Positions 5,927 to 30,482 of a DNA stretch of 32,000 nt are shown in pieces (positions within the stretch are counted from its first letter, which is position 1; each line of letters starts with the position of its first letter). A model generated the notes under the pieces. The model was given only the letters and a program-made list of their open reading frames with translations, did not search any database and was not told the origin of the DNA. The stretch lies in NCBI RefSeq assembly GCF_000091665.1, contig NC_001732.1, forward strand, positions 22,128-54,127, read 5' to 3'. The translations under genes were made by a program, and so were the position numbers. This stretch comes from Methanocaldococcus jannaschii DSM 2661 (GTDB lineage: Archaea > AGJL01 > Methanococci > Methanococcales > Methanocaldococcaceae).

Positions 5927-5941
5927 TAATGGTGAGAGTTT

Positions 5942-12400: not shown

Positions 12401-13222
12401 CTGGGCTATTGTAACACATGGTCTTGGACTACCATATTTTTCCTTATAATTGTAAGTTCCTACCAGCCTATCAACTCTTGCCAAATCATACATTGCAATA
12501 TCTGCCCCTAAATCTTCAGCAATCATTCTTAGTAGTATTAATTCTTCTTCTAAAATAGGTCTTTCAGGATATAATATGAATCTTAATCCTCCCCCAGTAA
12601 ATGCCACTTTATGTGGAAGTATATCCTTCTCTACGAATTTTGATAAATATTTAATCAATTTTTCCATAATTTCTTCTTCTGTAGGCATTTTGTTTGTCTT
12701 CCACTCTTCAACGTCAAAATCAAATGCAATATAACTCCAAGCAGTGGCAGCTCCCGCATCCCCTCTTTTTTCCTTTCTTGGGGCAATTCCGACATAAACC
12801 CCATCTAATCTTCTTTTCTTTTGTTTTTTAATATACTCATACTGTTTTTTTATTAATTTTATGATTTCTTCAGTTTTTTCTAAAATATTATCAACGTGTA
12901 AATCTGAAATATCTATGAAAAATTGTTTTTTACCCTTAAATTTTCCTAAAAATCTAATTTCTAAATACTTAAACTGTTTTACTAATTTTTTCAAAATTTT
13001 TTCTAAATGAGTTTCTCCAAGATATACTGAAAATTCTTCTTTATGTTTGACAATCAAAAATAGCAACTGTGCAATGTGTAATTTTAAATCAGATTCTAAA
13101 ATATCATCTGAGATATTGTAAATTCCACTAACATTTATTTGATACTTATCAAAAATAGCTTTTACAGTTTGATCATCCCAATACCGCAAACTTTTTATAC
13201 TATTAGATAGTATATTATTCAT
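9404..13222 (-). CDS. Replication protein: N-terminal archaeo-eukaryotic primase (prim-pol-like) domain fused to an SF2 DEAH helicase, with a C-terminal winged-helix-like tail
   Basis: 1272 aa with an AGGTGA RBS 7 nt before ATG 13222. AEP motifs: 'YIAFDFDVEEW' (DxD, aa ~165-174), 'VAFTGGGLRFILY' (sGxG, aa ~206-218) and 'RVDRLVGTYNYK' (R-h-x-G-T-x-N-x-K, aa ~249-260). Helicase motifs: I 'KADTGRGKTYT' (~504-513), II 'LLAIDEAHDL' (~606-615), III 'LLTATP', V 'ATRVISEGVNI' and VI 'QFIARCRNGGG'. The C-terminus 'ALEKLKKLGVIYEPKPGLLRIT' looks like a wHTH wing. Confidence 0.8.
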   Translation of the reverse strand: MNNILSNSIKSLRYWDDQTVKAIFDKYQINVSGIYNISDDILESDLKLHIAQLLFLIVKHKEEFSVYLGETHLEKILKKLVKQFKYLEIRFLGKFKGKKQFFIDISDLHVDNILEKTEEIIKLIKKQYEYIKKQKKRRLDGVYVGIAPRKEKRGDAGAATAWSYIAFDFDVEEWKTNKMPTEEEIMEKLIKYLSKFVEKDILPHKVAFTGGGLRFILYPERPILEEELILLRMIAEDLGADIAMYDLARVDRLVGTYNYKEKYGSPRPCVTIAQLTDEEDIEKLLTPIILYEKFGIIENYKEFEVLFNEKREELYNKRGLNNITTTINRLIKKPNLNKTILQDINKRIYKWLYTIQDKLTKKLGKRWIEKLLSYLGIDYKYGKNGTRLDLWSLFFDDGKNPDCSIYINEGYNAVMVDFHDPNMRFIALAGLWMIKEFRDKIIEFLKLHNINPKPSTYRTVREIMNELLDRETIKIEAEGYLPKEAIIKAYQLSIEQGVPVFLKADTGRGKTYTLTRNTREIKEVFKKHAIAVAFPYKIQVLQVGAGLHADGVVVPMYYEDGKKLDKNTIHYLTIGTYDQVENMLNDLCYDTYKGEKIQVANEEDILLAIDEAHDLVIQKEFRKRAITGVKKCIDRAGGCVLLTATPELINLNNYPVIEVEFKDEKKLFERCSIHIAKNIIGEFCEYILLMFRQGWIKNAVVLVDNKKMIENIKYTLELYGFNKPIYVITRETVGIDKASKMIINEEKVPEEGLILATRVISEGVNIKNHVDLVWALYCKSATTIRQFIARCRNGGGELIVTAPFKEREEEPMIIDYNAMIEMFKENYKLLKEYLETDIEVLKELDKNYKKVLISQIQNAIYYDEEKKDWVLDEDEIAHIYNSLLEAHITRDYKLLKEYLEKTTGYEFAIKTIKELKESKLDKFLKYNYLEYLEKVSAKHIIIAFKEYGVNEIKNALEYNNYKKFKDCRDEYTPQLIKKHSKRINRSINVLKDVYNIPEVIEVYNLMLNKGKDDDKKSNLDENTIKKCLEEINEYKKIVKEINENEDRKTKKIYHIDLKLLEEHKDKLSTLARIIEELILKTFLCPPSKWGKIQRIIRAVWNIVVGEDDERLDRRKLGLRSLVAKVLIKVRDFAIERQKFKIRELIEVIKEECGFTLTLDEVRRLIRAIFNCVIRGVKKLGENAVVEIKELNKEFKTLYEIIKQNINSNSVEKCEKVIEKKIEENGGEILEMELYELIVEKLKFVEEVFYKALEKLKKLGVIYEPKPGLLRIT

Positions 13223-14329: not shown

Positions 14330-14410
14330 CTAATAACCTACAAAGTGGGAGTTCAAATTTGCTAAACTTTAAGCTCCCTTAATGGAAACTCGAAACTAAA
14401 ATAAGTAAAA

Positions 14411-14505
14411 CCATAATACAATAATACAATCATTCAATAATATCATAAAATCATAATTTAGTAATGCAATAATCCAATAACTCCACAATAACATAATAAA
14501 ATAAC
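14411..14505. repeat. Array of degenerate ~8-bp units (CAATAATA)
   Basis: Units start at 14412, 14419, 14427, 14435, 14444 and 14452: 'CATAATA|CAATAATA|CAATCATT|CAATAATAT|CATAAAAT|CATAATTT'. The array continues with 'gcaataat ccaataac .. cacaataa cataataa'. Confidence 0.7.
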
Positions 14506-15020: not shown

Positions 15021-15482
15021 TTATTCTTTAATTATCTCAATAAAATCTACTTTTTCAAAGTCAGAATCAAAGGTAGCTAATTTATTTATCCTATAATATT
15101 TACAAGTGGCTATTATGATTGCATCGTTTGTTAAAAGGTTGTATTTTTTACCTATTTCAGGAGCTAATTTTAAAACTTCCCAATTTGTATCTAATATTTT
15201 TAAGTAGTTCATTTTAATCATTTTATCAATTTTTTCTCTAACTTCTTCATATACCCAAGAATATCTATTTAAATTCTTTTTTAAATCATAAACTCCTCTA
15301 ATTCCATCTTCTAATGCTATATGAAATGTCACTTTAAACATTGTTTCAGAAAAGACTATTGGATTTATGCATAACATAAAACCATCATTTATTAGTTTAG
15401 ATAATAATTTATGAGCTTTTTCATCTCCAATAAATAATCCAACCATGACTGAAGAATCAATAAAAACATTAGAAGGACTCAT
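15021..15482 (-). CDS. vapC: PIN-domain ribonuclease toxin (VapC-like)
   Basis: 153 aa with the PIN acidic residues in the expected order: 'VFIDSSVMV' (Asp), 'FSETMF' (Glu), 'LLTNDAIIIA' (Asp), 'ATFDSDF' (Asp). The ATG overlaps the upstream small gene by 14 nt. Confidence 0.85.
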   Translation of the reverse strand: MSPSNVFIDSSVMVGLFIGDEKAHKLLSKLINDGFMLCINPIVFSETMFKVTFHIALEDGIRGVYDLKKNLNRYSWVYEEVREKIDKMIKMNYLKILDTNWEVLKLAPEIGKKYNLLTNDAIIIATCKYYRINKLATFDSDFEKVDFIEIIKE

Positions 15483-16005: not shown

Positions 16006-16225
16006 TTTTTCTTATTTTTCTCCCCCTCCCTCTCGGGCTCTCCCCTCCCCCTCTTTTTAATTTTTCTATTTTAAAATTTAAATTAATATAATTATTAATT
16101 TGACAATTTGACAAGTTTTTTTATTTTTTATTATTGTTTTATTTTGATTGTATTTTTTGTTTTTGTTTGTTTTTATCCTATTTTTTTGCTTGTTTTGTTT
16201 TCTTTTGTTTTTTGTTTGATTGTAT
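16006..16225. repeat. Left copy of a ~200-bp inverted repeat (G/C-rich mirror core plus T-rich arm)
   Basis: The core CTCCCCCTCCCTCTCGGGCTCTCCCCTCCCCCTC (16020-16053) is the exact reverse complement of 23195-23228 (34/34). The inward-running T-rich part ('taatttgacaagttttt..attgttttattttgattgtattttttgttt..gttttgttt..ttgtttgatt') aligns with the reverse complement of 23045-23194, with small indels. Confidence 0.9.
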
Positions 16226-16575
16226 TTTGCATCGGTATTTTGTATTTTCTTTAGTAGGAGTTTGTATTATGTTTTTATTGTATTGTTGGATTATGTTGTC
16301 ATGTTATTATTGTATTATTTAGTTATTGTATTATAATTTGTATTTTGTATTTCCTTAATGGAGAGAGGTTATTTATTTTATTGTTTTATTGTATTATTTT
16401 ATTATGTTATTAATTAATAGTTGTATTCTTTTATTATGCAATTATGTTATTCTTATGGTGTTGTTGTGTTTGAATTTCTTTTAGTGGAAATTTGAATTAT
16501 GTTATTGTTGTATTATGTTATTGCAGTGTTATTTAATTGTTGTATTATTTTACTTTGTAATTATGTTGTTCTCGT
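16221..16575. repeat. Long array of degenerate ~8-bp units in the T-rich orientation (TATTATTG)
   Basis: 'GTATTATG|TTTTTATT|GTATTGTT|GGATTATG|TTGTCATG|TTATTATT|GTATTATT|TAGTTATT|GTATTATA' runs from 16264 onward. The array is interrupted by the dyad box 'tttccttaatggagagagg' (16350-16368) and the 22-nt box (16469-16490). Confidence 0.7.
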
Positions 16576-16697
16576 GAGTTTGTTTTTTTAGGTTTTAATA
16601 GAGTGTGTTCAAAAATAGGTTGTAAGATATGGTTAGAATAGTCTTTGCTAAATTAAAAATAATTAGGTGGTAGAAAGATGAGGGTTTATTTTTCTGA

Positions 16698-18014
16698 TTA
16701 GTCTAAGGTAGTTTGCCAACTTTTTATAGCTCCAATTTCTTCTTTACATGATTCTTTAAATTTTCTTGCCATTCTTTTATCTTTAATCACTTTAATTCTC
16801 CATTTTCTTGATACTTTCTTAAGATATCCTTTTAAATTTCTATTACTAAATAACTTTAATGTTTCTTCAATTCGTTTACTGACTATGTTTTTATAATCCT
16901 TATAGAAATAATCAATTATGGAGATACTTGTGCTTCTGTATAATGCATCCATTATAGTCCCTACAGTAAACTCTTTTTCAACAAGTGAGTCCATATTTAT
17001 AGAAATATTGAGAGCATCAATTAACTTAAGAACATTTGCATTTAGAGGTTTATTTTCTGGTAATATTACAATATCTTTATCTACTCTTAATAATTTATTT
17101 TCTTTGTCTATTATACATTTCTTCTTACAAAGTTTTTGTATAATGTTTTCAATTTCTTTAAAATCATCTTCTTTTAAACTTTCTAATGAGTATTCACCTT
17201 TTGGGAGAATAATCTTTTTACTAAATACCATCCCCACTTCTGGCTCATCGTGTCCAGATAATGCCATAGATACGAGTTCTCTAAGTATAAGAATTTTAAA
17301 TAAACTTCCCTCTTTGTCATTCTCAGCATCGCAAATCAGTAAATCATAGGAAGGTTTCTCTTTTTCTCCCCAAGTTATTGGAAATATTTTATTTAGCTTT
17401 TGATTTTCATAATTACCACGTTCGAGTGAAATTTCTCCAGGTGAAACTTTTAAAATTTGAATGTCTTCTGTATCTTTTAAAACAGGATGTGTAGTTAAGT
17501 CATCAAATGACATGTAACTTACATCAGACTTATATAATCTAGGATTTTTTGTGACAGAAATGTATCCTTTGTTTATAATAACATGTAGATTCTCTTTTAA
17601 TTTCAGATATTTTTCTAATTGCTCTTTTTTGATACTTTTAGATTTGCATTCAAAAATAAGAACATGTGTATCATTATCATTAACAAGTATAACATCTGGA
17701 GTTATTTCTGCAGGATTGCCATTTTTAGTATAATATATTCCATCAAGAACGATTCTTACACCAAGAGTACTACCTTTTTTGGGTCGATATCCCAAGTCAT
17801 ATAGATGATGGGGAAAATATTTTATAGGATAAACAAGATTTAATATTATGTTGATTAGTTTAGTATGTTGAGATTGATAATCTTCAAGATTTTCTGAAAT
17901 TAAAGCGGTTATATATTCAATAATATCTTTATATGAAGGTTCTGTTGAGGTTTTCTTCTTTCCATATTTCTCGAAATAAAAATCTAAAGTTCTGTTATCT
18001 AATTCTTTCCCCAT
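16698..18014 (-). CDS. Hypothetical protein with an N-terminal PD-(D/E)xK nuclease-like motif
   Basis: 438 aa. A GAGGTGG RBS lies 6 nt before ATG 18014, inside the 3' end of the upstream gene (20-nt overlap). 'ITPDVILVNDNDTHVLIFECKSKSIKK' (aa ~104-130) gives P-D...E-x-K with the spacing and hydrophobic strands typical of restriction-endonuclease-fold nucleases. I recognised nothing in the remaining ~300 aa. Confidence 0.8.
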   Translation of the reverse strand: MGKELDNRTLDFYFEKYGKKKTSTEPSYKDIIEYITALISENLEDYQSQHTKLINIILNLVYPIKYFPHHLYDLGYRPKKGSTLGVRIVLDGIYYTKNGNPAEITPDVILVNDNDTHVLIFECKSKSIKKEQLEKYLKLKENLHVIINKGYISVTKNPRLYKSDVSYMSFDDLTTHPVLKDTEDIQILKVSPGEISLERGNYENQKLNKIFPITWGEKEKPSYDLLICDAENDKEGSLFKILILRELVSMALSGHDEPEVGMVFSKKIILPKGEYSLESLKEDDFKEIENIIQKLCKKKCIIDKENKLLRVDKDIVILPENKPLNANVLKLIDALNISINMDSLVEKEFTVGTIMDALYRSTSISIIDYFYKDYKNIVSKRIEETLKLFSNRNLKGYLKKVSRKWRIKVIKDKRMARKFKESCKEEIGAIKSWQTTLD

Positions 18015-19221
18015 ACTTTTCCACCTCTAAAATTGTCTCAGAATCATACGTCTGTTGGATATTAGATAGTAATCTTAGAGCAGTGTTTCCACATGAGCCT
18101 TTAGGTAAGTATAGTCTCATCCACCATGGAGTAACTTCTAATGAAAACCTATCTCCATTGTGCAAATCCACTCCTGAAATGTAATACATATCTTCTTCAA
18201 CTTGTTTGGCTAACCCCCAAATTTTAAAAGGTTCTTTTACTGATATTAGTCCCTCTACAAAGTTTTTTAAATCTTCAATTTCTTTTTCAAATTCGTAAAT
18301 TAGTGGTATTCTATCGCCCCAATCACTTGAAGTATAGTCAATTAGAGAATCTTCAATAATTTCAATTTTTTGTTCGTAATTTTCTATAGTTTTATCTACA
18401 ATTTCATTGTGTTTTTCTATTGATGTTCCTTTAACTGTAAATTTCCCCCAATAATAAATATCCTCCAAGACAAATTTATCTTTATCATCTTCTGAAACTA
18501 TCTTTATTTTTGATTTTGTAATTCTCATTAAGTGTTTAAATTCATGTAATTTTTTGATAGTGTTAAATATCTTTTTTATTTTTGTATCATTTAACAATTG
18601 GAAATCCTTAATTAGTTTTTCAAATTCTTGAATCTCATCTGAAGATAATGATTGGATAATTTTAATTAACTCATAGACACTTTCCCCATTACTACTAATT
18701 GATAATTTATTAGCCCTCTCTTCAACATCATTATCTAAGTAAAATGGAGTTTCATCATGTTTAGTTGATAACCCCCTAACATAATCTGCTTTTTTTAGGA
18801 ATTTTTCTAAATCACCTGTGGGCATCCATAGGTTATCTAATCTTGATTTTATTGGACTTATTAATTTATTAAAATATTTATCAGACTCTTCTGATTTTTG
18901 TAATGTGTATAATTTCCAAAATCTTGGGTTTTTAGCATCTATGAAAAAGTAACCTTCATCACCAATACGTAACATGTAGAACTCATATTCATCTAATGGT
19001 TTTATTTTTCCAGTTTTTATTATTCTTGATAATTTTTTGGGATGGATATTCGACTCTAAAATATATGTTTTTACAACATTTTGTTCGGGTTCTAATTTCG
19101 TATCGTCTAAAATGTCTTTATAAGACCTTTCCATGTTTCTTTCTAACCATTCGTATAACTGAGGACGATTTGTTATGTCGGGTATAGCACTTCCAACAAA
19201 TATTGTGTCCATAATTATCAC
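17995..19221 (-). CDS. Hypothetical protein (no recognisable motif), first gene of a two-gene operon
   Basis: 408-aa ORF. The track start is GTG 19221; the ATG at 19212 is preceded by GGAGTGTGAT. Codon and amino-acid usage look like the neighbouring real genes. It is translationally coupled to the 438-aa gene. Confidence 0.75.
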   Translation of the reverse strand: MIIMDTIFVGSAIPDITNRPQLYEWLERNMERSYKDILDDTKLEPEQNVVKTYILESNIHPKKLSRIIKTGKIKPLDEYEFYMLRIGDEGYFFIDAKNPRFWKLYTLQKSEESDKYFNKLISPIKSRLDNLWMPTGDLEKFLKKADYVRGLSTKHDETPFYLDNDVEERANKLSISSNGESVYELIKIIQSLSSDEIQEFEKLIKDFQLLNDTKIKKIFNTIKKLHEFKHLMRITKSKIKIVSEDDKDKFVLEDIYYWGKFTVKGTSIEKHNEIVDKTIENYEQKIEIIEDSLIDYTSSDWGDRIPLIYEFEKEIEDLKNFVEGLISVKEPFKIWGLAKQVEEDMYYISGVDLHNGDRFSLEVTPWWMRLYLPKGSCGNTALRLLSNIQQTYDSETILEVEKYGERIR

Positions 19222-19539
19222 ACTCCTTAATAACAGTAAAAACAGTGTAAGGTATTAAAAAACCGTCCTAATAAATACCAGCTTATTTATTTTTTGAATA
19301 ATTTGTTTTTAATGAATAAAAAATTTTCTTTCTCACTGGTGTGTCCAATATTAGAGTTGTGAGTATTATATACTCATAGCAACAAAAGATGGAAATCAGA
19401 GTCGTGGTTTATTAAACATAGGATAAAATCTTGAAAATATTCGATAATGTCATTAAGAATCTACTTTACTCTTAGATTTGAATTCAATAAATGATAGTGT
19501 TAATGTTATTGTTTTTAAATTTGGGTCTAATAATACTAT

Positions 19540-19565
19540 GTGAATTGACTTTGAAATCAATTCAC
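19540..19565. repeat. Palindromic element, copy 6 (one arm mismatch)
   Basis: GTGAATTGACTT-TG-AAATCAATTCAC. It lies ~320 nt upstream of the 408-aa gene start. Confidence 0.85.
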
Positions 19566-19613
19566 GTGAGGATCTTATCCCCTCATAATACTCCAAAAAA
19601 CAAAAACTATTAC

Positions 19614-19637
19614 TTGTGTATGTAGAGTGCAGAAACT
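19614..19637. repeat. Conserved 24-nt box, copy 2
   Basis: TTGTGTATGTAGAGTGCAGAAACT; see 14306-14329. Confidence 0.75.
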
Positions 19638-19680
19638 ACACCTCAAAGTATGAACTCTAGTCCGCAATTTTGAATTTTCT

Positions 19681-19790
19681 TTAATTATGTTATTATTGCA
19701 TTGTTGAATTATGTTGTTATATTATTATTAAATTATTTATTTATTGTATTATTGTCTTGTAGGCTATTATAAACTTGTATTTTGTACTTC
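19681..19790. repeat. Array of degenerate ~8-bp units (T-rich orientation), ending in a TTCC-N8-GGAA dyad box
   Basis: 'ATTATGTT|ATTATTGC|ATTGTTGA|ATTATGTT|GTTATATT|ATTATTAA|ATTATTTA|TTTATTGT|ATTATTGT' is followed by 'cttccttattaatggaaatc' (19788-19807). Confidence 0.65.
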
Positions 19791-20100
19791 CTTATTAATG
19801 GAAATCATCCATTATTGCTTATGTGGGCGTTATAGTATTATAGGAAGTTTATATTGTTAGAATTAACATTAAAAAGCTCTAAGTATCTATTTTCTAGATT
19901 TTTAGATTTTTATGACTAAACTCAAATTTCAAAAACATGGATTGTGAGTCTATACCGCTACATATAAAAAGTGTGAAAAGATAACAATCTCAATTTTATT
20001 GGATTCTAAATTGCATTACAAAATTAAATTGAAATATTAAATGAGCTTAAAAAAAGAAGAAATTACCAACCACTGAATAAAAATATGATTAAATTTGCAA

Positions 20101-20988
20101 TTATTCTTTGTTTTCGCATTTTTTTTGAATGACTTCTAAGATTTCTTTTTCTAATTTTAGTATTTCATTTATTGTTGTTTTAAAGGTATCTATTTCAGAC
20201 TTTAATGTATTAAATTTAGTATCAAACTTTTCATCAATCTTATTTACTTCTTCGGATAAAATTTCAATTTTATTCCATATTGGAGTTGTTACATCTCTTG
20301 TCGCAACACCGAGTATACCTCTAATGAATTGTTTTGTTACCAACTCTTCCTTATTTATTGGGAAATCATAGATTCTTACAAAACCAGATGCTGATTGCTT
20401 ATAGGATATTATAAAAGCGTGTGCATACTGTACATTATCTATGGCTACAGCTAATGGATTAATTGAAACTCCAGAAACTCCATGAGGTGGTGTCTTATTA
20501 TGAGGTTTTGTACCAACCCATAGGGGAAGACTTAACACTATACCTGATATTGTCAAACTAATACGTTTATTAGTAGTAATATAATTTGGATTCATGCTAA
20601 GCACGTTTTGCATAACTGGCGGATTCAATTTCTGATTATCATCTGCTCTCCCAACATATTGGGGACTATCACCCATCCAAACAATAATTTGACCTGCATT
20701 AAGAAATCTCCTTAGTAGGCTGTTTGATGTAGGATTATCCGGATTATCTAAAACTAAATCAGGAACAACATCTTGAGCAAATACTACCACATATTCTTTA
20801 TTTGTATCTTTAGAACCCTCCCCTAACACCCTCTGCAAACTGGGAGCGTCAATAACTTCAAAATCATATTTTTCTAGTTCTTTAGATATATGCTTAGCCA
20901 CATTATGAGGTATCCAGCTGTAAGGATAACGTTCATCATAGTATACATACAACTTCTTTTCAGTTAGTCCTGGTGTCATATGTTTCAC
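20101..20988 (-). CDS. Hypothetical partner protein of the OLD-family nuclease (globular N-domain plus C-terminal coiled coil)
   Basis: 295-aa track ORF starting at GTG 20988. The ATG at 20979 is more likely (292 aa): GGGTGA (20990-20985), which contains the OLD stop codon, sits 5 nt upstream. The C-terminal ~60 aa ('[49 protein letters not shown]') are heptad-like. The N-domain segment '[12 protein letters not shown]...[19 protein letters not shown]' is reminiscent of flavodoxin/GATase1-like folds, but only weakly. Confidence 0.75.
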
Positions 20989-22877
20989 CCTAGTTCACTA
21001 TCTATATTTAAAATAATCTTCTTGATATCTTCTGGAACTTCAGTAAGTCTTGATACTATCTTTTCTGCGATTTTACATTTCAAATATCGTTCAATCGATC
21101 TACCACTGTCCCACCCTAATGTAATAATAAACTCTTCGTCTACATTTTTTAAAACTGTGAATAATTTTCCACTAAGTTTGTGCAATAAATCTTTTTCATT
21201 TTTACCTTCTTCATTCTTACAAGCACCAAAAATTTTGATTTCATCTATAATAGATTTAATTTCTTCGTCTTGGAGAACTTCTTCATATTTATCTTTGAGA
21301 CATTCTCTTAGTAATTCATCAAGTGCGAGAATGAAATCTTCAGGTTTTATGTATCCTAGTATATCTTTTTTCTCTATTATAAATACTTCAAAATTCTCAC
21401 GTAAGCCCATATCCTTAGCTATTTTAACATTCTTTAATCCCTCTTCATCATTATCAGCAATTAAAAACACTTTAATCCCGTAATCCTCCTTAAATACTTT
21501 TATCATCTCTTTTAGACTTCTTTGAGCATAGGGTATTATAATATAGCTAAATTTAGGAAGATTTTTAAGTTGTTCTATGAGCAAATCTATGTAACCTTGC
21601 AGTATTATCCGATCGCTGTTTCCTTCGACAAGTATTGCGACATCTGAGAAAAGGAAATAACCTGGTACAACACCCAGATCTCTAGCAAGTGATTCACTAA
21701 GCCTGCTACCACGGAATGGATAAAAGATTCTTGTAGCTAGAAGCTCTGTTGGGTATCCTTCAAAGTTAATTTTAATTGAATCTTTTCGAACACCTATAAC
21801 AAACCTCTTATCTTTAAGAGTGGCAATGAAATCTGGAGAATGTGTAACTATGATTAACTGAACATTTAAATTATTAGCTAAGTCTTCCAACACCCTTGCC
21901 AAACGTCTTATATATGCAGGATGTAAGTGAATTTCTGGCTCTTCTATCAAAAATATATGATGTTTTCCTTTAGATATTATTGAAGCTAATATTCCATCAA
22001 TAATCTGATCTCCACTTCCAAAAAGTTCATAATTTAATGACATACCTTCATATGATTTTGTTAAAATTTCAGTTCTATCAGGTTGTTCATACGTGTCTAC
22101 ACTTCCTTTTATCTCTCTAAGACAATCATATAACATTCTAAGTCGTGCAAAATCTTTTATCGTGTTTTTAATGACATTTATTAATTCAGAAGATACCATA
22201 GGATGGGCAAAAAGGCCTTTAATTGGGATATTTACCATTTTATAGATCTCAGGGAATGTATTCACATAGCATATCTTATTTTTTATAAGATCTATGAATA
22301 TATTAAAGACATCTTTATTTTTTATAGTACCGCTTTCCACAATTACACATGGCACTAAAGAATCTCCAGTCTTTGACTCGATATTATGCCCTGTCACCTT
22401 ACTGTGGATTTCTTTCATTTTCTTTAAAGCTTCTTTTGCAATCTTGGATGTCTCTGATACGTAACCAAATATTATCACATTTTGGAGCTTCCATATAATT
22501 TGATTATTATTACTCTCAATGGATACTTCAATATATGCTTTCTTAACATTACTTTCTAAACCACATACCTCCCTCAATTTGTCGCCTTCTCCTTCATCAA
22601 AGTTTAGCCATACAGCAAGTTTTATAGGGTAATTCTGGTAAGTGTAAAACCATAATCTTCTAATTTGATCTTTTAAGTTTTGTTCAGTTATGGTAGTGAT
22701 ATTAAGATTTTTCTCAGTAGAATTAGTGTCGAGATTTTCAAATATGATCCTTATAACATTAAGTATCGATGTTTTTCCAGAACTATTTTTGCCTATAAGC
22801 ACTGTAACTTTCCCAAATTCTACAGTTAGATCATAAATGCTTCTAAAGTTTTCTATTTTAACCTGTTCTATTTTCAT
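20985..22877 (-). CDS. OLD-family nuclease: ABC-type ATPase fused to a C-terminal TOPRIM domain
   Basis: 630 aa. The N-terminal '[32 protein letters not shown]' contains Walker A. 'ELFGSGDQ' is signature-like, '[15 protein letters not shown]' is Walker B/D-loop, and '[10 protein letters not shown]' is the H-loop. TOPRIM motifs are '[14 protein letters not shown]' (Glu) and '[12 protein letters not shown]' (DxD). Confidence 0.88.
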
Positions 22878-23044
22878 ACACTACAACCCCTTAGTAGATT
22901 GTAGATATAACATAAAAAATATACTAATATCATTAATTTAAAAATTTTCATTATTATTAAATTTACTATTATTCTAGAAATTTGTTATAGAGTGCTATGG
23001 TTCTTCATTAAGCAATAAGAAGAAGCTTTCTACCATTTCCACTA

Positions 23045-23243
23045 AAATAAACATAAAAAATCAAACAAAAAAACAAAACAAAATAAAAATAAGTACAAAC
23101 AAAAAATACAATCAAAAATAAAACAACAATAAAATAAAAACTTGTCAAAATAAGTAAATTAATAATTTTTAAACTAAAAAATAAAAAATTAAAAGAGGGG
23201 GAGGGGAGAGCCCGAGAGGGAGGGGGAGGAAACAGAAAGAAAA
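23045..23243. repeat. Right copy of the ~200-bp inverted repeat
   Basis: The core GAGGGGGAGGGGAGAGCCCGAGAGGGAGGGGGAG (23195-23228) is at the outer end. The A-rich arm runs inward to ~23045 and ends in 'ccatttccactaaaa'. This copy is shorter than the left one and has no long octamer array. Confidence 0.9.
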
Positions 23244-23263
23244 TAAAAACAGAAAACAGTAAA

Positions 23264-23707
23264 CTAATTCCCCACAATCAACTTATAATCCTCCTCAGGA
23301 ATCTCCCTCATAGCCTTACCCATCAAATGCCCACTCCACCTCTTCTTATTAGTAATAAATTTAAGCTTCGGGATCAACTCCTTAAAATTAATTGGTGGTT
23401 CAAAGACTTTAATTTCCTTTAATTTAACTCTATATGGAAACTTCTCATTAGGATTTCTTGGAGTTGGCTTAAAAATTTTTGAACTATCCTTATAAACCTC
23501 TGAAACAACCTCATAAACTCCTCTTATGTATGGGGGTTTATAATCCTTTCCACTCCTCTGAATCTCATAAATAATCAGCTTATCTCCTACTTTAACTTTG
23601 TTTATGGTGTTTTTGTACCTCTCTGCTACACCCCAAATCTTCTTCTCTTTTATAACCTTCCAGTTATCCTCGTTGGTTATACAGAGCCAGTATGCCATAA
23701 GATCCAC
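23264..23707 (-). CDS. EVE / PUA-like (ASCH-superfamily) domain protein
   Basis: 147-aa track ORF starting at GTG; the ATG at 23698 gives '[13 protein letters not shown]...'. The pattern 'YWL..t......v......WGV.....N.i.[11 protein letters not shown]......GV.EVVSE...D' matches stand-alone EVE/PUA-like domain proteins. From memory this is the UPF0310 family. Confidence 0.75.
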
Positions 23708-23812
23708 TATAATTAACTTTTTAATAACTTTTTCAATAAAAAATATTTTTAGAGCTTTTGTAATATATAACCTATTAGATTTGGGAGGTACTTTCTATAT
23801 TTGGTGGTTGTT

Positions 23813-23971
23813 ATGAGATTTTTAACGCTTGTGGTAGTAATTATTTTGCTGTTATTCCCAGTATTTGCTGGTTGTATTGGTAGAGTTTGGGATAATGACT
23901 CTGGGGGAGGTTTTTTGTTAATACTTTTAGAAAATGAGACTTCAAATATACATTTAATACATCTGATGTAG
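23813..23971 (+). CDS. Small ORF with signal-peptide/lipobox-like N-terminus (not in the supplied track; 52 aa)
   Basis: My own translation gives 'MRFLTLVVVIILLLFPVFAGCIGRVWDNDSGGGFLLILLENETSNIHLIHLM*'. GGTGG lies a few nt upstream of ATG 23813. The sequence has a hydrophobic core followed by 'FAGC'. It sits directly upstream of, and on the same strand as, the 237-aa ORF. Confidence 0.3.
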   Translation: MRFLTLVVVIILLLFPVFAGCIGRVWDNDSGGGFLLILLENETSNIHLIHLM

Positions 23972-24027
23972 ACATTTTTAAATTCTGTAATATTTCTAAT
24001 AATGAAACCTGTATTGTAATTGGGAAA

Positions 24028-24741
24028 ATGAATAATTTTAGTAAAAATTTAGAAGAATGTTTTCAAAAATATGGATATGAGAATTTTACACTTTTATTGG
24101 CTGGATATATTGCAAAATATCCTAAATATGAAGAAATCTCTAACAATACCAAATTTCTAAATGAATATCATAATGAAGTATCAAATATTACTACTTGCCT
24201 ACATGTTTATAAAAACTTAGCAGAGGGTGTTAAAAGAGATTTCAACCTTGATTTACTATATCTTAATGATTATGAAATTAAAAAAGTAAAATCTATGGTT
24301 GAGCCTAACGTAATTAGTGATGCAATAACCGTTGTAACACTTGTTAATGATTATAATAATCTTATTGATGCTGCAAGAAATGTTAAAAAGGGAGATAAAG
24401 AATCCTATACAAAATTCTATATTGCATTGGGAATTGTAGTGTTTGATGTAATTTTAATAAAAGAGAATGTGGCTTATAAGGTAAGTTATAAACTTGTAGG
24501 AATTTTAATTAGTAAAACGGGCTTCTATAAAGTTATTTACAAGTATGGTGGAAGCACAGCATTAAAACCTATAGAGAGTTGTACACATTGGATATCTCGA
24601 GGAGAAATTAATAGTATGCCCAGTAAATTGTATAACAATTCAGATAAATTAACAAACATTTCAATAAAAATTAACACTTCAAAACTGTATAACAAGAGTA
24701 TAAACACTATAAGAAGTAAAATAATGGAGGTTTCAAGTTAG
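24028..24741 (+). CDS. Hypothetical protein with one or two hydrophobic segments
   Basis: 237-aa ORF with coding-like composition. The hydrophobic stretch 'FYIALGIVVFDVILI' and 'YKLVGILISKTGF' suggest membrane association. I recognised no motif. Confidence 0.55.
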   Translation: MNNFSKNLEECFQKYGYENFTLLLAGYIAKYPKYEEISNNTKFLNEYHNEVSNITTCLHVYKNLAEGVKRDFNLDLLYLNDYEIKKVKSMVEPNVISDAITVVTLVNDYNNLIDAARNVKKGDKESYTKFYIALGIVVFDVILIKENVAYKVSYKLVGILISKTGFYKVIYKYGGSTALKPIESCTHWISRGEINSMPSKLYNNSDKLTNISIKINTSKLYNKSINTIRSKIMEVSS

Positions 24742-25062
24742 ATAATAGAATGTTTGATTGTTGGGTCTGTAACTCTCTAATTTTTTTATTTCGTTAATTG
24801 TTTTAGTTGTTCTATAAAACAAATATCCAACAGCTTTTATGTTAAATTTTACAAATAATAATAAGGGTTCTAAAATGTTTTTTACACTTTTAATCAATTT
24901 TAGGAACATATTTTTGATTTCTTTAATAGTTTCTTTAATTGAGTCTATTATTTTAGATTTATTTGTTAAGAAGATAACGAATAAAACTCCAAATAGAATA
25001 ATTAAGAAATCTTCGGGGATTTTTGATAGTGAGTTAATTCCTTCTGTGATTATTGTTATCAA
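24733..25062 (-). CDS. Small hypothetical membrane protein downstream of the PIN gene
   Basis: 109-aa track ORF. It begins at TTG 25062, 5 nt after the PIN gene stop, and the first ATG is only at codon 52. It has a TM-like segment 'FLIILFGVLFVIFL'. The start and the reality of the gene are uncertain. Confidence 0.35.
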   Translation of the reverse strand: MITIITEGINSLSKIPEDFLIILFGVLFVIFLTNKSKIIDSIKETIKEIKNMFLKLIKSVKNILEPLLLFVKFNIKAVGYLFYRTTKTINEIKKLESYRPNNQTFYYLT

Positions 25063-25066
25063 TATT

Positions 25067-25846
25067 TCAATTAGTTTTTTTTATAATGCTTGTAACAATT
25101 TCAAGTATTGTGATAATAATAGACGTGCATATTTTAAATGCTAAAGGTGCTGTAACATTCATAATGCAAAATGAAAATGAACCTTGACTTAGTTCAGTGA
25201 GTACAACTTTTACTTCTCCAACTTTCCAAATTTTTATAATTTTTTGGTCTTTAAAATCTTTATCACGTGTTATAATTCCATGGGTATCAAGTGAAAGAGC
25301 TAAAGTTACAAAAGGAATATCCTTTACATCCCTATGACCTATCAGATTATATGCAATTTTACTCCAATTATTTGATTTTTTATCATTTATTATTTTAATA
25401 TTGGACAGTATAATATTAGCAATTTTTATTGCCTTAGATTTTGCTTTATTTTCGTCAATATTCTTCTTTTTACATTTTTTTGGGAGAACATTCTCAATCT
25501 TATTTTTTAACTCATCTACAATTAATTGTGGAGCATATAATTCTATAAAAGGATTATTGATAAAATCCAATATCCATGGGAGTTCACCTTTTGTAACATA
25601 GGATAATACTTGTGAGAATATAATATTAGTATCAACAACTAACTTTAATTTAAACTCTTTACCTAACATATATACTAAATTCTTCTGGAAATAAGCACTA
25701 AGATAATTAATAAAGTCTCTTCCTAAAGTTTTTTCTATTTCATTCCATAATTTGTTAAATTCATCATCAAACTCCTTAAAATACTCCCACTCACAATCAT
25801 GAAACCTTTGAACTTCAATATTTGTGAGAGATTGCATATTAGCCAC
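25067..25846 (-). CDS. PIN-domain protein with a ~65-aa N-terminal extension and a hydrophobic C-terminal tail
   Basis: 259 aa. '[14 protein letters not shown]' carries the first PIN Asp, '[15 protein letters not shown]' the Glu region, and '[25 protein letters not shown]' the Asp...T-x-D pattern. The C-terminus '[32 protein letters not shown]' is TM-like. The start is GTG 25846 or ATG 25837. Confidence 0.7.
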
Positions 25847-25917
25847 ATTTAAAGATTTATTAGTATTTATCTAAAACTTTGATATTATAATTGCTATAAC
25901 ATGTAAGGATTGATGAG

Positions 25918-26067
25918 TTATTTGATTACCTGATTTCTGTTATTCCCTAAACTATGTCTAACTATATCCATTAGAGTATATCTCTTGTCATGAAACTTAA
26001 TTATTTCTAATAACTTTTCATTTTCTTTAGTTTTCATTTTCACATATTCCTCATTGTAATTGACCAT
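25918..26067 (-). CDS. Small ORF upstream of the PIN gene (49 aa; possible RHH-like antitoxin/regulator; not in the supplied track)
   Basis: My own translation gives 'MVNYNEEYVKMKTKENEKLLEIIKFHDKRYTLMDIVRHSLGNNRNQVIK*'. GGGTGAT lies 3 nt before ATG 26067. The ORF ends 71 nt upstream of the PIN gene on the same strand. Confidence 0.4.
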   Translation of the reverse strand: MVNYNEEYVKMKTKENEKLLEIIKFHDKRYTLMDIVRHSLGNNRNQVIK

Positions 26068-26198
26068 TTTATCACCCTTTCATTGTTGTTGGATAATATT
26101 TTATTTAACTTTAACAACATTATAAAATATATGTTCTATATATTTAAATGATTATATATTTAAATAAATAGAATAATTATTATAAGAGTGTAAACTTC

Positions 26199-27254
26199 TC
26201 ATTTAGAGTTAGGAATAGAATTAGGAATTTCATAATATACATTTACAGCAAATTTACCTTCATCTTTTTTTATTTCAATATTGGATACATTTTTAATATT
26301 CGTTAAGAATTTATTGTAAATTTCTTTAGAAATTACCCTTACAATAGAGTAATGTGTTATTTCATCATAGTTCTCAATCGGAATTGATAATTTTACTGGT
26401 ATTGGTTCAACTTTCTTATTATATTGCTCTGCATTTTTAATTTGTAGTTCTTTTTTAACATCTTCTTCTATTTTTCTAAGAATGTCATCACTAATTTCAC
26501 TTTTAAGGTTATTTTCATTTTTATAGTACTTTTCAACAAATTTCAATTTTGAGTTGTATATATCAACTGGAGTATAAATTTTTACTTTTTCTTTTCCTAA
26601 TTTTTTTAACCATACATCTATTTTGTATATGGGCAATTTTTGGTCAATTACATAATAATAATCATCTATTTTTACAGCAACTGCAACGTGAGTTGGATAA
26701 ACCAAAAAGTAATGCTTTATATTTAAATTATGAAGAATTGCAGAAGTTAATTTTGCATAATCTCTACAAATTGCATATTTGGTCTTTAATATGGTTTTTA
26801 AAGATGTAGATATCCAAATTAGACTTAATGTAGTAAATAATCCTTCCTTTAATTTTAATATTTTACTGTCACATTTTGATAAAGTAAAGAACGTAGCCCA
26901 TAAGTGTAAGAATGTTCCTACCACCCCACATAAGAACAAGAATAGTATTATAGTAATTATAAAATATAAACAGCATATTATAATGTGTATTGTAGGTGAT
27001 ATGCAAAATACTTGTTCGCACCATAACCAAACTTCTGGAAATATTGCCCATACTAACCCTACTATAATGAAAAATGTAATAAAGTAATATACATTCGACT
27101 TTTCATAACAATAACGTATATTACTATCTTCCCATTCTAAAACATTAATTATTGTTTTAATGCTGTTGTTTTTGTATTTTAATATTTCAGCAAGATGTTT
27201 TGTGTCCTTCAAATCCTCATCATTTAATTGAATATGCTCTAATAAAATAGGCAC
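26199..27254 (-). CDS. Membrane-anchored transglutaminase-like (Cys-His-Asp) superfamily protein
   Basis: 351 aa with a GTG start preceded by GGTGA plus 6 nt. There are three to four TM segments (aa ~55-150). These are followed by 'YAICRDYAKLTSAILHNLNIKHYFLVYPTHVAVAVKIDDYYYVIDQ'. This fits the transglutaminase-core order Cys (C-R-D-[YF]-A), His (T-H-V-A-V) and Asp (V-I-D). Confidence 0.6.
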   Translation of the reverse strand: MPILLEHIQLNDEDLKDTKHLAEILKYKNNSIKTIINVLEWEDSNIRYCYEKSNVYYFITFFIIVGLVWAIFPEVWLWCEQVFCISPTIHIIICCLYFIITIILFLFLCGVVGTFLHLWATFFTLSKCDSKILKLKEGLFTTLSLIWISTSLKTILKTKYAICRDYAKLTSAILHNLNIKHYFLVYPTHVAVAVKIDDYYYVIDQKLPIYKIDVWLKKLGKEKVKIYTPVDIYNSKLKFVEKYYKNENNLKSEISDDILRKIEEDVKKELQIKNAEQYNKKVEPIPVKLSIPIENYDEITHYSIVRVISKEIYNKFLTNIKNVSNIEIKKDEGKFAVNVYYEIPNSIPNSK

Positions 27255-27325
27255 AACACTTCACCCTGTAGTTCCCGAATGTAATTTTCCTACATCTTTA
27301 AGTCTCATGAATTTTGATTCTACTC

Positions 27326-30300
27326 TTATATTGCATATATATTTTTTGCATATTCAAATAAATCATCTGAAATCTTATTTATAAGTGAATAATCTTTTAT
27401 CCCTTCCTTCATTAGAATGATTTTAAGTTTAGCTCGTATTTTAGATTGGAGATTTTTCTTCTTTTTCCAATCACGAGCTTTAATATAACCAGACATCATT
27501 CTTGCAATTTCTTTTGCAATTTTTTCTACTCTTTTTTTATCTGTTAGGGGTATATTGGGATATGAAAGTAAAAGGTCATAAAATGCCAACTCCTCTTCAG
27601 TTAGTCCCAATTCTTTACCTTCTTCAGCAGCTTTTCTAATTTCTTTAGCCAAATTAACTAGTTCTTCAATCATTTCGGCAGTGGTTATTACCTTTATACG
27701 GTATTTCTCTATAACTTCATTTAACCTTTCTGAAAACTTTTTAAATCTTATCGGATTCTTTGCCATACGAACTCTTATATCATCATTTAGAATTTTGATA
27801 AGAACATCTCTTACATAATCTTTGTATTCTATTTTAGCAATCTCAGATAAAAATTCATCAGATAAAACGGAAAGCTCCGGTTTTTCTTTTTTTAGCATTT
27901 CAAAGACGTCTACTAGCTCTTTAGCACTAATACTTTTAGATATTAAACTTTGTATGTCATTTTCAAGGTCTTGAGAAATCTCACGGATTTTTTTAGTGGA
28001 ATATTTAACAATCATCTTTTTTATCATTTCAAAGAATTCTAAATCATCTTTAATACCTATTGTTTCAGGATGAGGTCGAGCAAGTAAGTAAAGCTTTTTT
28101 AATGCTATAACATTCCTAACAAATTCTTTTTTGGTATTATCATCTTTTGCTACTCTTTGATAAGCTTTTACTGTAAGTAGGGATAAGTCTTCTGAAGATA
28201 ACTTTTTCCAATCTTTGTAATTAATATTTTTAAAGTATGATGTTACCTTTTCATATCTACGCTTCATCTCTTCAATAACTACTTTAATGTCAGTCATTAA
28301 ATCCTTTCTCGCCTCACTTGAATATTTAGAAAGGGATTTAGATAAATCATCGGCAATTCCTATATAATCTACAATAAGCCCTCCTGGTTTATCTTTAAAT
28401 ACTCTATTCACCCTTGCTATTGCCTGTGCTAATGAATGATTTTTCATCGGTTTTAAGAAATACATCGTATGTAAGCAGGGAACATCAAAACCTGTAAGCC
28501 ACATATCGACAACTATAACCATCTTTAAATCTGACTCTGGGTCTTTGAATTCTTTGGCTAAGTTTTCAAGCTCCTTTTTTGTTCTTATATGTGGGTGGAA
28601 ATCTTCAGGGTCTTTTGATTTATTCCCAGACATTACAACGGCAATCTTTGGAGCATTTGGCTGTTTAGTAATCCATTTATATAATTCTACTGCTACTTTT
28701 CTACTAATAGTAACTACCATAGCCTTTCCATCGAAATCTTGAAGACGTTTGTTAAAATGCTCTATAATATCCTTTGAAACCTTGGAGAGATAATCCTCTG
28801 TAAGCATGATTTTTTCAAGTTTGGCAAATACTTCTTTTATACTCTCTTTTGTTTCTGGGTCATTGGCTACTCTTTCAGAGATTTCATCAAACTCTAAATC
28901 AATGAATTCATTTGTAAGATGTAATTCTACAAGTCGGGCTTCATAATAAATTGGAACAACTACTCCATGCCTCTTTGCCTTATCAATTGGATAGGCACTT
29001 ATATAATCTCCAAATACTAAGAATGTTGAACGGTCTTTGTAGTCTATTGGAGTGGCTGTGAATGCCAAAAATGATGCGTTAGGAATAGCTTTTCTAAGAT
29101 TTTGAGCTAATGTTCCATAATGGCTTCTATGGGCTTCATCTGCAATTATGATTATGTTGTTTCTATCAGTTAGGAAAGGGTAGTGTTCATCTTTTGACTT
29201 TCTACCAAATTTTTGTATTGTAGCAAAAATTATTCCTCCAGGTGTTTTCTTAATGAGTTCTTGAAGCTCAGCTATACTTTCAGCTCTTTCAGCCTCTGAA
29301 AAAACACTTGAAAAAACATTATATAGTTGTTCATCAAGTTCTAATCTATCTGTGAGGAATACTAAGAGGGGATAATTTAATTCTTTCTGTTTAAGTGCTT
29401 TTTTGGCATAAAATAACATTGTTATAGATTTACCTGTCCCTTGTGCATGCCATACAATACCGATTCTCCTATCTTCAGGAGTTTCTCCATAAAGTACGGA
29501 TTTTATTGTTCTATCTACGGCTTTTTTAACTGTATAAAATTGATAATAAGTGGCTATAATCTTTTTCTTATCATGGATGATAAAGTCCTCGAGGAATTCA
29601 ATAAGATGTTCTTTTTTAAATAAACCCATTAAAAGTATGTCTAAGCTTGTATATGGGTTTCCTTTATATTTATACATTGTATTTCCATAATTATCAACTT
29701 CTATAACTTCAACATCGTCATCACTTTCAACTCCTTCCCAAACAAAGAATCTATCCCAATCACTTGTTGGAGAACCGTATTTTGTTTCTAAACCGTCGCT
29801 AACAACGAGTATTTGGGCATATTGGTATAGTTGAGGAATATCTTTCATTTTTGTTTTATGGTCGTTAAATGCATCTTTGGCTGTTTGATTGGATTTTGGG
29901 CTTTTAAATTCAAAAATTGCAATGGGAATTCCATTTATAAATACAACTAAGTCGGGTCTTCTAAATCTTCCATTTTCATAATAGTATTCAACCTCAAATT
30001 GATTGGCTACTAAAAATTCATTTTTATTTATATTTTCAAAGTCTATCAATTTTACAAATCTTGTTTTCTTTTCTCCATTTTCTTTAAATTCTAATTTAAC
30101 TCCATTAATTAGCATTTCATAAAATATTTTTCCACGCATATTGAAATCTGGGTTATCTATGTTGGTTACAGTTTTATAAACTTTAAGTGCTAATTCTTCA
30201 GTAAGCCATGGGTTGATATTCTTTATAGCTTTTATAAATCGGTTTTTAAGTATTGCATCTCTGTAAGATTCCCTCTCATTATATTCTGGAGTTAGTTCAG

Positions 30301-30454
30301 AACCATGTTTATAGGAATAACCAAGATTTTTGAGTCTTTGTATCGCTGCATTTTCTACAACGTAATCTTCATTTAATTTTGCAGCTTCTTTTTTCATTTT
30401 ATCACCAATGAATACCCCCACTAATAAAAAATATTTATTTGCAGATATTGGCAT
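27326..30454 (-). CDS. hsdR: Type I restriction enzyme, R (restriction/translocase) subunit
   Basis: 1042-aa track ORF. The ATG at 30397 ('MKKEAAKLNED') follows GGTGAT plus 3 nt and is more likely. It has an N-terminal PD-(D/E)xK motif 'RPDLVVFINGIPIAIFEFKSP'. SF2 motifs are 'HAQGTGKSITM' (I), 'IIIADEAHRSH' (II), 'FTATP' (III) and 'QAIARVNR' (VI). A long helical C-terminal region follows. Confidence 0.95.
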   Translation of the reverse strand: MPISANKYFLLVGVFIGDKMKKEAAKLNEDYVVENAAIQRLKNLGYSYKHGSELTPEYNERESYRDAILKNRFIKAIKNINPWLTEELALKVYKTVTNIDNPDFNMRGKIFYEMLINGVKLEFKENGEKKTRFVKLIDFENINKNEFLVANQFEVEYYYENGRFRRPDLVVFINGIPIAIFEFKSPKSNQTAKDAFNDHKTKMKDIPQLYQYAQILVVSDGLETKYGSPTSDWDRFFVWEGVESDDDVEVIEVDNYGNTMYKYKGNPYTSLDILLMGLFKKEHLIEFLEDFIIHDKKKIIATYYQFYTVKKAVDRTIKSVLYGETPEDRRIGIVWHAQGTGKSITMLFYAKKALKQKELNYPLLVFLTDRLELDEQLYNVFSSVFSEAERAESIAELQELIKKTPGGIIFATIQKFGRKSKDEHYPFLTDRNNIIIIADEAHRSHYGTLAQNLRKAIPNASFLAFTATPIDYKDRSTFLVFGDYISAYPIDKAKRHGVVVPIYYEARLVELHLTNEFIDLEFDEISERVANDPETKESIKEVFAKLEKIMLTEDYLSKVSKDIIEHFNKRLQDFDGKAMVVTISRKVAVELYKWITKQPNAPKIAVVMSGNKSKDPEDFHPHIRTKKELENLAKEFKDPESDLKMVIVVDMWLTGFDVPCLHTMYFLKPMKNHSLAQAIARVNRVFKDKPGGLIVDYIGIADDLSKSLSKYSSEARKDLMTDIKVVIEEMKRRYEKVTSYFKNINYKDWKKLSSEDLSLLTVKAYQRVAKDDNTKKEFVRNVIALKKLYLLARPHPETIGIKDDLEFFEMIKKMIVKYSTKKIREISQDLENDIQSLISKSISAKELVDVFEMLKKEKPELSVLSDEFLSEIAKIEYKDYVRDVLIKILNDDIRVRMAKNPIRFKKFSERLNEVIEKYRIKVITTAEMIEELVNLAKEIRKAAEEGKELGLTEEELAFYDLLLSYPNIPLTDKKRVEKIAKEIARMMSGYIKARDWKKKKNLQSKIRAKLKIILMKEGIKDYSLINKISDDLFEYAKNIYAI

Positions 30455-30482
30455 TATCTAATTTAGCAATTAAAAAAAATTT

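Follow-up and report, generated by a model that had tools for sequence, protein, structure and literature searches.

An OLD-family nuclease gene and its PF27344 partner gene: a candidate two-gene defence module of hyperthermophilic archaea

Nucleases of the OLD family are recurring immune effectors of prokaryotes, and their control is diverse, involving nucleotide sensing in Gabija, multicopy single-stranded DNA (msDNA) in retrons and triggered release in PARIS. In Methanocaldococcus jannaschii, the large extrachromosomal element of 58,407 bp carries an OLD gene, MJECL35, followed directly by a second gene, MJECL34, and the locus raises the question of whether the two genes belong together and, if so, whether they represent one of the described OLD systems. 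We analysed a stretch of 32,000 nucleotides (nt) of this element, referred to as the window. Based on the evidence collected, the pairing of the two genes is understood as more than a chance neighbourhood, and the pair lies outside OLD classes 1 to 5. Considering that the partner is new to OLD systems and that the pair recurs in the defence clusters of other hot-vent archaea, we regard it as probably an undescribed variant of an immune system whose general kind is known. The roles of OLD proteins in archaea are almost unexplored, Cran1 being the single case studied.

The OLD protein, its partner and their junction

The features of the pair, with the basis of each in parentheses, are these:

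20985..22877, minus strand: MJECL35, OLD-family nuclease with ATP-binding cassette (ABC) ATPase and TOPRIM domains, 630 amino acids (aa) (Pfam, AlphaFold2 (AF2), Foldseek)
22770..22793, minus strand: MJECL35 Walker A, GKNSSGKT, residues 29-36 (G29, N31, G34 and K35 invariant in the clade)
21918..21956, minus strand: MJECL35 Walker B / D-loop, residues 308-320 (clade alignment)
21351..21653, minus strand: MJECL35 TOPRIM core, residues ~409-509 (E418 codon at 21624-21626, D475-N-D477 codons at 21447-21455)
20985..20990, minus strand: GGGTGA, stop codon of MJECL35 inside the ribosome-binding site of MJECL34 (sequence)
20101..20979, minus strand: MJECL34, partner protein, 292 aa, or 295 aa from the GTG at 20988 (precomputed PF27344, AF2)
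20299..20961, minus strand: MJECL34 glutamine-amidotransferase-like alpha/beta domain, residues 7-227 (Foldseek)
20107..20286, minus strand: MJECL34 C-terminal amphipathic helix of 60 residues (232-291), capable of forming a coiled coil (DSSP on the AF2 model)
20045..20100, minus strand: oligo-T tracts 3' of the MJECL34 stop codon (sequence)

MJECL35 (Q60291; 'ATP-dependent endonuclease' in RefSeq) combines all features of OLD-family membership, namely the ABC ATPase motifs, the TOPRIM Glu together with DxD, and the OLD fold with its helical insertion. Pfam recognizes AAA_15 (1e-29, residues 1-351) and OLD-like_TOPRIM (1e-9, residues 409-477), and the top PADLOC models, AriA, GajA and Old, score at the level of the superfamily (1e-31 to 1e-34) with partial coverage. 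An insertion of ~250 residues extends from Walker A (G29-T36) to the signature/Walker B region (G287...E312-E313). Besides the Walker A positions listed above, the alignment of 12 clade members reveals as invariant the signature-like G287, G289 and Q291; E312, E313, P314, E315, H317, H319 and P320 of Walker B / D-loop; T345, S347 and P348 of the H-loop motif T345-H346-S347-P348; E418, G419, D422, D475, D477, G480 and D505 of TOPRIM; and K600 of the C-terminal region. K35, E312 and H346 align with K34, E276 and H310 of TsOLD, which PMC7049728 describes as essential for ATP hydrolysis. Position 346 of the H-loop differs within the clade, with the THSP of M. jannaschii replaced by TQSP (Gln) in seven of the 12 members while the other ATPase motifs are invariant.

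The AF2 model of MJECL35, with a predicted local distance difference test score (pLDDT) of 84, finds its PDB matches over the full length (>630 aligned columns) in TsOLD (6p74, 3e-18), GajA (2e-17) and the OLD protein of retron-Eco8 (1e-13). The ATPase domain of the model contains inserted helices at residues 142-162, 188-198 and 230-257, and ~120 residues of helices follow C-terminally to the TOPRIM core. Pfam, motifs and structure searches thus agree with the original prediction, made before this analysis, of a 630-aa protein having the full OLD architecture, a large ATPase insertion, and a TOPRIM domain with E and DxD. The catalytic residues of both TOPRIM and ATPase are kept across the clade; their loss from TOPRIM upon careful alignment had been named as evidence that would tell against the prediction.

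MJECL34 (Q60258) is assigned to Pfam family PF27344 ('MJECL34') by a precomputed entry in the protein database, which covers P0001-P0015 together with the distant relatives P0196-P0207. PF27344 is a newer family, absent from the Pfam copy used for the domain scans; neither in that copy nor in NCBIfam or PADLOC did MJECL34 find a match, and zero families of the PADLOC-DB v2 defence models were returned at E <= 0.1. Its AF2 model (15 homologues, pLDDT 88) consists of an alpha/beta domain (7-227) and a single long helix (232-291). The globular N-domain and ~60-aa C-terminal coiled coil predicted originally are therefore confirmed, and the "unknown family" of that prediction is to be replaced by PF27344. 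The structure search proposed at the same time leads to a glutamine-amidotransferase-like fold: Foldseek against the PDB returned class I glutamine-amidotransferase-like domains with a probability of 0.95-1.0 and a template modelling (TM) score on the target of up to 0.54, the latter value obtained for TrpG (1i1q) and for the amidotransferase domain of M. jannaschii GuaA (7d97). A beta-1,2-glucosyltransferase (7vky, E 2.7e-4) was also matched, as were homoserine O-succinyltransferases (HTS/MetA), ThuA and the middle domains of GH42/GH164.

No Cys is conserved among the 15 partners, the sole Cys of MJECL34 (C288) being located in the tail, and the Cys-His-Glu triad is consequently absent. At the position following beta-4, where amidotransferases place the nucleophile Cys, MJECL34 has the motif G103-D104-x-P106. 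Among partners 38-66% identical to MJECL34, 46 columns are invariant, including D15, E16, E62, D70, D78, S87, R90, D104, Q124, H187, R202 and D205; a core subset of the invariant residues is kept throughout the PF27344 family. Conserved within the domain are D15, D70, G103-D104-x-P106, P159, R202 and D205, and the AF2 model places D15, D70, D104 (in W-x-G-D-x-P) and D205 (in G-F-x-R-x-Y-D) each directly past the C-terminal end of a beta-strand. The helix shows a continuous heptad pattern (a/d hydrophobic fraction 0.71) and a conserved motif, F-x-T-L-K-S-E; a transmembrane segment was not found in MJECL34. The possibility of an acidic DNA mimic was considered and rejected, for the isoelectric point of the domain is mostly 8-9.4. 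Two of the partners, encoded at L012 7689-9152 and as P0015 (487 and 473 aa), have an extra domain of ~190 residues past the coiled coil, without a Pfam hit and with the look of a beta-sandwich or lectin from the sequence.

The two genes meet at GGG-TGA-AACAT-ATG (20990-20977), with the TGA placed within a GGTGA Shine-Dalgarno-like motif 5 nt ahead of the ATG, and this junction agrees with the tight coupling inferred originally from the position of the MJECL35 stop codon within the next gene's ribosome-binding site. The alternative start GTG at 20988, overlapping by 4 nt with the MJECL35 stop, yields the 295-aa version of GenBank. The oligo-T tracts after MJECL34 are the probable end of the transcription unit, as judged from the sequence. 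Between MJECL34 and the next operon there is a non-coding gap of 880 nt (19222-20100), which includes one copy of a palindrome and one AT-rich repeat array, both described below; it is free of long internal repeats, and Rfam gave no match in it. Rfam gave zero matches in the window as a whole, leaving a retron-like or other known RNA without support there.

Co-occurrence of the two genes

In all six neighbourhoods inspected individually, from different lineages, a member of the MJECL35 clade and a PF27344 gene are adjacent on the same strand with the partner downstream. Lookups anchored on the partner in three lineages (Thermofilum sp., another vent archaeon and a Methanocaldococcus-like relative) arrived at an OLD protein of 622-654 aa encoded directly upstream, and lookups anchored on the OLD protein added three further clade members, each having a PF27344 gene directly downstream. 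Scanning metagenomes with the partner alignment led to 28 loci, 26 of which have sequence homologous to OLD immediately upstream and in the same orientation. The gap between the two genes ranges from -23 to +11 nt in 22 of the 26, a 4-nt overlap (-4) being the commonest arrangement. Individual loci need to be read with their particulars: L034 is frameshifted, L040 and L041 are one locus from two samples with a decayed OLD gene, L033 offers just 307 nt of sequence upstream, and L042 is a partial match to another subfamily.

The association is specific to the clade. As a control, 80 generic OLD loci were taken from among the matches listed from GTDB genomes, and the number of PF27344-family genes found within 4 kb of them by tblastn and hmmsearch was zero; UvrD helicases downstream of OLD were recovered in the same set (L053, L057), which served as a positive control. 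The clade itself is discrete, with E <= 1e-51 inside and E >= 1e-16 outside, and the pairwise identities of OLD and partner, which go as low as about 30%, are correlated across 13 pairs (r = 0.90). This strict, clade-specific co-occurrence together with co-divergence establishes that the pairing is more than chance. It also settles the co-occurrence check put forward with the original prediction, in that the partner is directly downstream in every adequately covered locus and the OLD clade is not solitary.

A third conserved gene was not found, the open reading frames (ORFs) upstream and downstream being specific to each of the related loci, and the module is accordingly one of two genes. A three-gene module had been considered and was rejected on these grounds; for the 408-aa and 438-aa neighbours in the window, none of the related loci offers a homologue.

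The pair is rare and widely scattered. The partner forms 15 clusters among 5.8 billion proteins, and the loci carrying the pair have a GC content of 32-48% and come from distant archaeal lineages, as exemplified by the Methanocaldococcus plasmid and a 397-kb, apparently chromosomal contig of Thermofilum, which points to horizontal spread. A scan of the GTDB species genomes with the partner alignment matched 25 patterns, of which 0 were confirmed, and a scan of the GTDB species representatives with the OLD alignment gave, among the matches listed, distant OLD proteins only (best 25% identity). There was no match for window positions 19000-24000 in the PLSDB plasmids by megablast, and none for MJECL34 in plasmids and phages by tblastn.

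Proposed function, rival explanations and surroundings

The genes flanking the pair vary from locus to locus and are mostly of defence types. Overall they comprise type I, IIG and IV restriction, GmrSD, Mrr, PLD nuclease, HerA-like ATPases, nSTAND nucleoside triphosphatases (NTPases), DUF499/DUF1156, EVE and PIN. Thus, type IIG/MmeI-like enzymes, Dam methylases and an Upf1-like helicase are the neighbours at L001, GmrSD and Rad50/Mre11 at L007, Mrr-TPR and DUF499/DUF1156 at L008, a PLD/NgoFVII-like nuclease and a HerA-like ATPase at L010, and nSTAND NTPases at L012. The genes around the pair in the window code for an EVE protein, PIN proteins and type I restriction, and a ParA gene is also near.

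The reading that we prefer, and consider slightly more probable than not, is that the two genes encode an archaeal defence module. The OLD protein would supply the effector, a two-metal nuclease under ATP control, and MJECL34 would be a sensing or regulatory subunit that is attached by its helix. We infer that the two proteins form a physical complex, that MJECL34 is the sensor in it and that the pair has a defence phenotype, the last from genomic context only. MJECL35-MJECL34 would be a self-contained, translationally coupled module that hyperthermophilic archaea direct against viruses or foreign DNA. MJECL35 would act as effector, its ABC-ATPase head controlling the two-metal TOPRIM nuclease, which would nick or degrade DNA. 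MJECL34 would be the obligatory accessory subunit, joining or oligomerising the OLD protein via the C-terminal amphipathic helix, and its non-catalytic amidotransferase-like domain, with a conserved acidic pocket of D15, D70, D104 and D205 plus R90 and R202, could serve as sensor/regulatory module. Binding of an invader cue by that domain would then license the nuclease, possibly through ligand-induced oligomerisation. If true, this compact, thermostable two-protein system would offer a tractable structural and biochemical model for the licensing of OLD ATPase-nucleases. It would also provide the first functional context for the widespread, uncharacterised PF27344 family and its 601 representative clusters.

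That family was explored by a profile search among 1.84 billion representatives, which found the PF27344-type domain in 601 proteins at E <= 1e-3, ~12 of them including the coiled coil. The relatives include a group of secreted giant proteins with dockerin, PA14, LamG or CBM domains and a cytoplasmic group of ~280-350 aa, in which ~17 of 90 have two to three C-terminal transmembrane helices. The domain is also fused to TIR_2 (P0108), to a CAP12/Pycsar-type TIR (P0133, P0147) and to a DpnII-MboI-type endonuclease (P0077). The link to OLD is confined to the coiled-coil subfamily; other conflict effectors have recruited the domain as well. Fusions with TIR, endonuclease and transmembrane elements represent the usual sensor-plus-effector layout and hence count towards the sensor role of MJECL34; ligand-induced oligomerisation by the domain would account for them as well. 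A wider proposal, advanced here tentatively and as doubtful, is that the MJECL34-type domain constitutes an unrecognised sensor/oligomerisation module of prokaryotic immunity that was recruited repeatedly, by the OLD protein through the coiled coil and by TIR, DpnII-MboI-type endonuclease and transmembrane pores through fusion. The pair would then be a sixth class of OLD, so far of hyperthermophilic archaea, with its trigger bound in the acidic pocket.

Several points weigh against a sensor in defence. The PF27344 family as a whole is not defence-specific, as evident from the secreted giants and from three stand-alone archaeal relatives; all three of the latter that were inspected are found amid housekeeping or otherwise unremarkable genes, with an OLD neighbour in none. 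The many invariant polar residues of the MJECL34 domain could equally mark the active site of an enzyme. The sampling is narrow, most of the related loci originating from few hydrothermal metagenome series. Lastly, Cran1, the only archaeal OLD characterised, is not a defence protein (PMC12796447).

The enzyme explanation is the alternative that survives best, and we rate it as unlikely on the analysis presented here. It would have the Asp/His/Arg pocket of MJECL34 make or destroy the compound, a small molecule or a nucleotide, by which the OLD nuclease is gated, comparable to Gabija, in which GajB depletes nucleotides and so releases GajA. Conservation of 46 columns among partners 38-66% identical, with a core subset kept family-wide, and the location of D15, D70, D104 and D205 past the strand ends, the usual active-site edge of such folds, would be explained by catalysis, as would a fold that matches genuine amidotransferases and acyltransferases. 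However, no Cys is conserved, hence there is no Cys-His-Glu triad, the fold class has many non-catalytic or oligomerisation domains (GH42/GH164 middle domains, ThuA-like), and a sequence link from MJECL34 to any enzyme family was not found in Pfam, NCBIfam and PADLOC. Plasmid stabilisation by an addiction or toxin-antitoxin-like module, with MJECL34 restraining a toxic OLD protein and loss of the element killing the cell, appears improbable: relatives reside on long, apparently chromosomal contigs (Thermofilum, 397 kb) in restriction-rich islands, the nuclease gene precedes that of the partner, and a DNA-binding autoregulator domain is missing from the latter, even if the extrachromosomal location, the ParA and PIN genes nearby and the tight translational coupling typical of toxin-antitoxin pairs would fit. 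Still less probable, by our analysis, would be housekeeping, be it in DNA repair, chromatin or the cell cycle, for which the class 5 OLD Cran1 of the Sulfolobales is the precedent, showing that an archaeal OLD with a conserved neighbour need not be immune (PMC12796447). The vertical, order-wide conservation of Cran1 is the opposite of a pair of rare and patchy occurrence (15 clusters of the partner among 5.8 billion proteins, no close OLD among the GTDB matches listed), plasmid-borne here, found in variable defence islands and spread across phyla. Adjacency by chance or as an annotation artefact is as good as dismissed, being refuted already by the co-occurrence data: gene order, strand and coupling are conserved, OLD and partner co-diverge, and the association is specific to the clade.

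The wider surroundings in the window include the following genes:

23264..23707, minus strand: EVE-domain gene, upstream of MJECL35 with a 387-nt gap (Pfam EVE 1e-28)
25067-25846: PIN_2 protein
26199-27254: transglutaminase-like DUF553 protein
27326-30454: HsdR, type I restriction
30483-31781: HsdS, type I restriction
15021-15482: PIN gene
9404-13222: helicase, 1272 aa

EVE domains read modified bases. At the unrelated locus L019 (2117-2614) an EVE gene overlaps with the OLD start by 26 nt and at L001 it is 8 kb away, while ~11 other loci have no EVE gene upstream. It is possibly a facultative accessory outside the core, or else it reflects mere clustering in defence islands. The neighbourhood at 24028-31781 is otherwise defence-like. 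Downstream of the pair, at 16698-19221 on the minus strand, two ORFs of 408 aa and 438 aa overlap by 20 nt and are without family assignment, the 438-aa ORF giving faint nuclease-like Pfam hints only (HSDR_N_2, DUF234; E about 0.06). Inverted-repeat arms of ~190 nt (16016-16213 and 23046-23232; 72% complementary) bracket a 6.8-kb segment made up of the OLD pair and the two unassigned genes. Each arm holds a G/C-skewed mirror repeat, GAGGGGGAGGGGAGAGCCCGAGAGGGAGGGGGAG, and the two GGGGNNGGGG sites of the whole window (28% GC; 0.05 expected) are both located in the arms, which may be the boundaries of a cassette or a structured DNA element. A 22-nt palindrome, GAATTGACTTYRAAGTCAATTC, occurs in five copies (5765, 8397, 14559, 15900, 19542; 0.01 expected by chance), all of them intergenic and one directly upstream of ParA. 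Near these copies are arrays of AT-rich repeats with an 8-nt period (16242-16588, 19660-19776, 14407-14504, 8205-8281, 5855-5931), and the combination resembles plasmid modules of the operator, centromere or iteron kind. The OLD pair of another locus, L013, is directly preceded by genes for a TFB-like zinc-ribbon protein and for TBP (2259-3433), which suggests a mobile element with its own basal transcription factors.

Comparison with known OLD systems

OLD classes are set largely by neighbourhood: class 1 is solitary, class 2 has UvrD/GajB, class 3 a retron, class 4 the split AriA/AriB, and class 5 is Cran1 with a membrane protein (PMC10568477, PMC12796447). Yang et al. 2025 additionally drew 11 uncharacterised OLD clades, U1-U11, of which U3 is archaeal (PMC10568477, PMC12796447), and the supplements of that study, the Cran1 paper, do not mention M. 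jannaschii. A mention of MJECL34, MJECL35 or PF27344 was not found in the literature, nor was the description of an OLD class past class 5.

Class 1 (P2 Old, TsOLD 6p74) is closest in the protein itself, which is likewise a single polypeptide of ABC ATPase with inserted helical domain plus TOPRIM. TsOLD is the best match of MJECL35 in sequence (profile E 4e-20) as well as in structure (3e-18), at an identity of only ~15%, and the spacing from TOPRIM Glu to DxD, 57 residues in MJECL35, is similarly short in class 1. MJECL35 is ~100 residues longer than TsOLD, however, and class 1 comprises stand-alone genes, whereas the MJECL35 clade has its partner directly downstream in every adequately covered locus. 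According to PMC7049728, TsOLD is without the C-terminal helical domain that the class 2 enzymes have; MJECL35 has a helical region of ~120 residues past the TOPRIM core.

In gene organization, Gabija (class 2, GajA-GajB) is the nearest analogue, with the same two-gene operon, OLD first and accessory directly downstream, and the same occurrence in defence islands. In structure, GajA matches MJECL35 strongly (2e-17); its PADLOC models hit at superfamily level only (5e-32 or weaker, partial coverage). The Gabija partner is a UvrD/PcrA/Rep helicase, whereas MJECL34 is a 292-aa protein of amidotransferase-like fold plus coiled coil, devoid of helicase or P-loop motifs. Among the generic OLD loci, a haloarchaeal one (L081, 5849-7801) is followed by a gene for a 650-aa HATPase_c_3 protein (GHKL ATPase) and not by a UvrD helicase; this may be another undescribed OLD partnership.

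Class 3 requires a reverse transcriptase and msr/msd RNA, neither of which is present among the flanking genes of the pair or in the Rfam scan of the window. PARIS (class 4, AriA-AriB) is likewise a two-component system of OLD-family modules and shares the concept of a nuclease held in check by an ATPase scaffold until triggered, with AriA providing the best PADLOC match to the ATPase half of MJECL35 (1.9e-34). In PARIS, ATPase and TOPRIM are on separate proteins, whereas MJECL35 unites both in one 630-aa chain and MJECL34 has neither. Cran1 (class 5, Sulfolobales) is likewise an archaeal OLD, and its gene shares a conserved putative operon with a small gene whose function is unknown (PMC12796447). 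Its partner is a membrane protein (PMC12796447), unlike MJECL34, which has no transmembrane helix; and Cran1 is vertically inherited throughout the Sulfolobales, essential and not linked to defence (PMC12796447), whereas MJECL35-MJECL34 is patchy, mobile, cross-phylum and located in defence islands. From the proteins of class I glutamine-amidotransferase-like fold, which residues 7-227 adopt, MJECL34 is distinguished by lacking the nucleophile Cys and triad and any detectable sequence similarity, and by the added 60-residue C-terminal helix.

Judged by the defining features of the classes and by neighbourhood, MJECL35-MJECL34 is outside OLD classes 1-5. The original prediction of an archaeal, hyperthermophile, plasmid-borne pair as candidate for an undescribed system is supported: the partner is unlike that of known OLD contexts, being neither UvrD helicase, reverse transcriptase, AriB nor membrane protein, the clade is not one of solitary OLD genes, and the TOPRIM residues are retained. 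Since MJECL35 exhibits the features of the OLD family and the pair lacks the defining feature of every class, it is best described as an unlisted variant within the OLD family, as opposed to a new kind of system.

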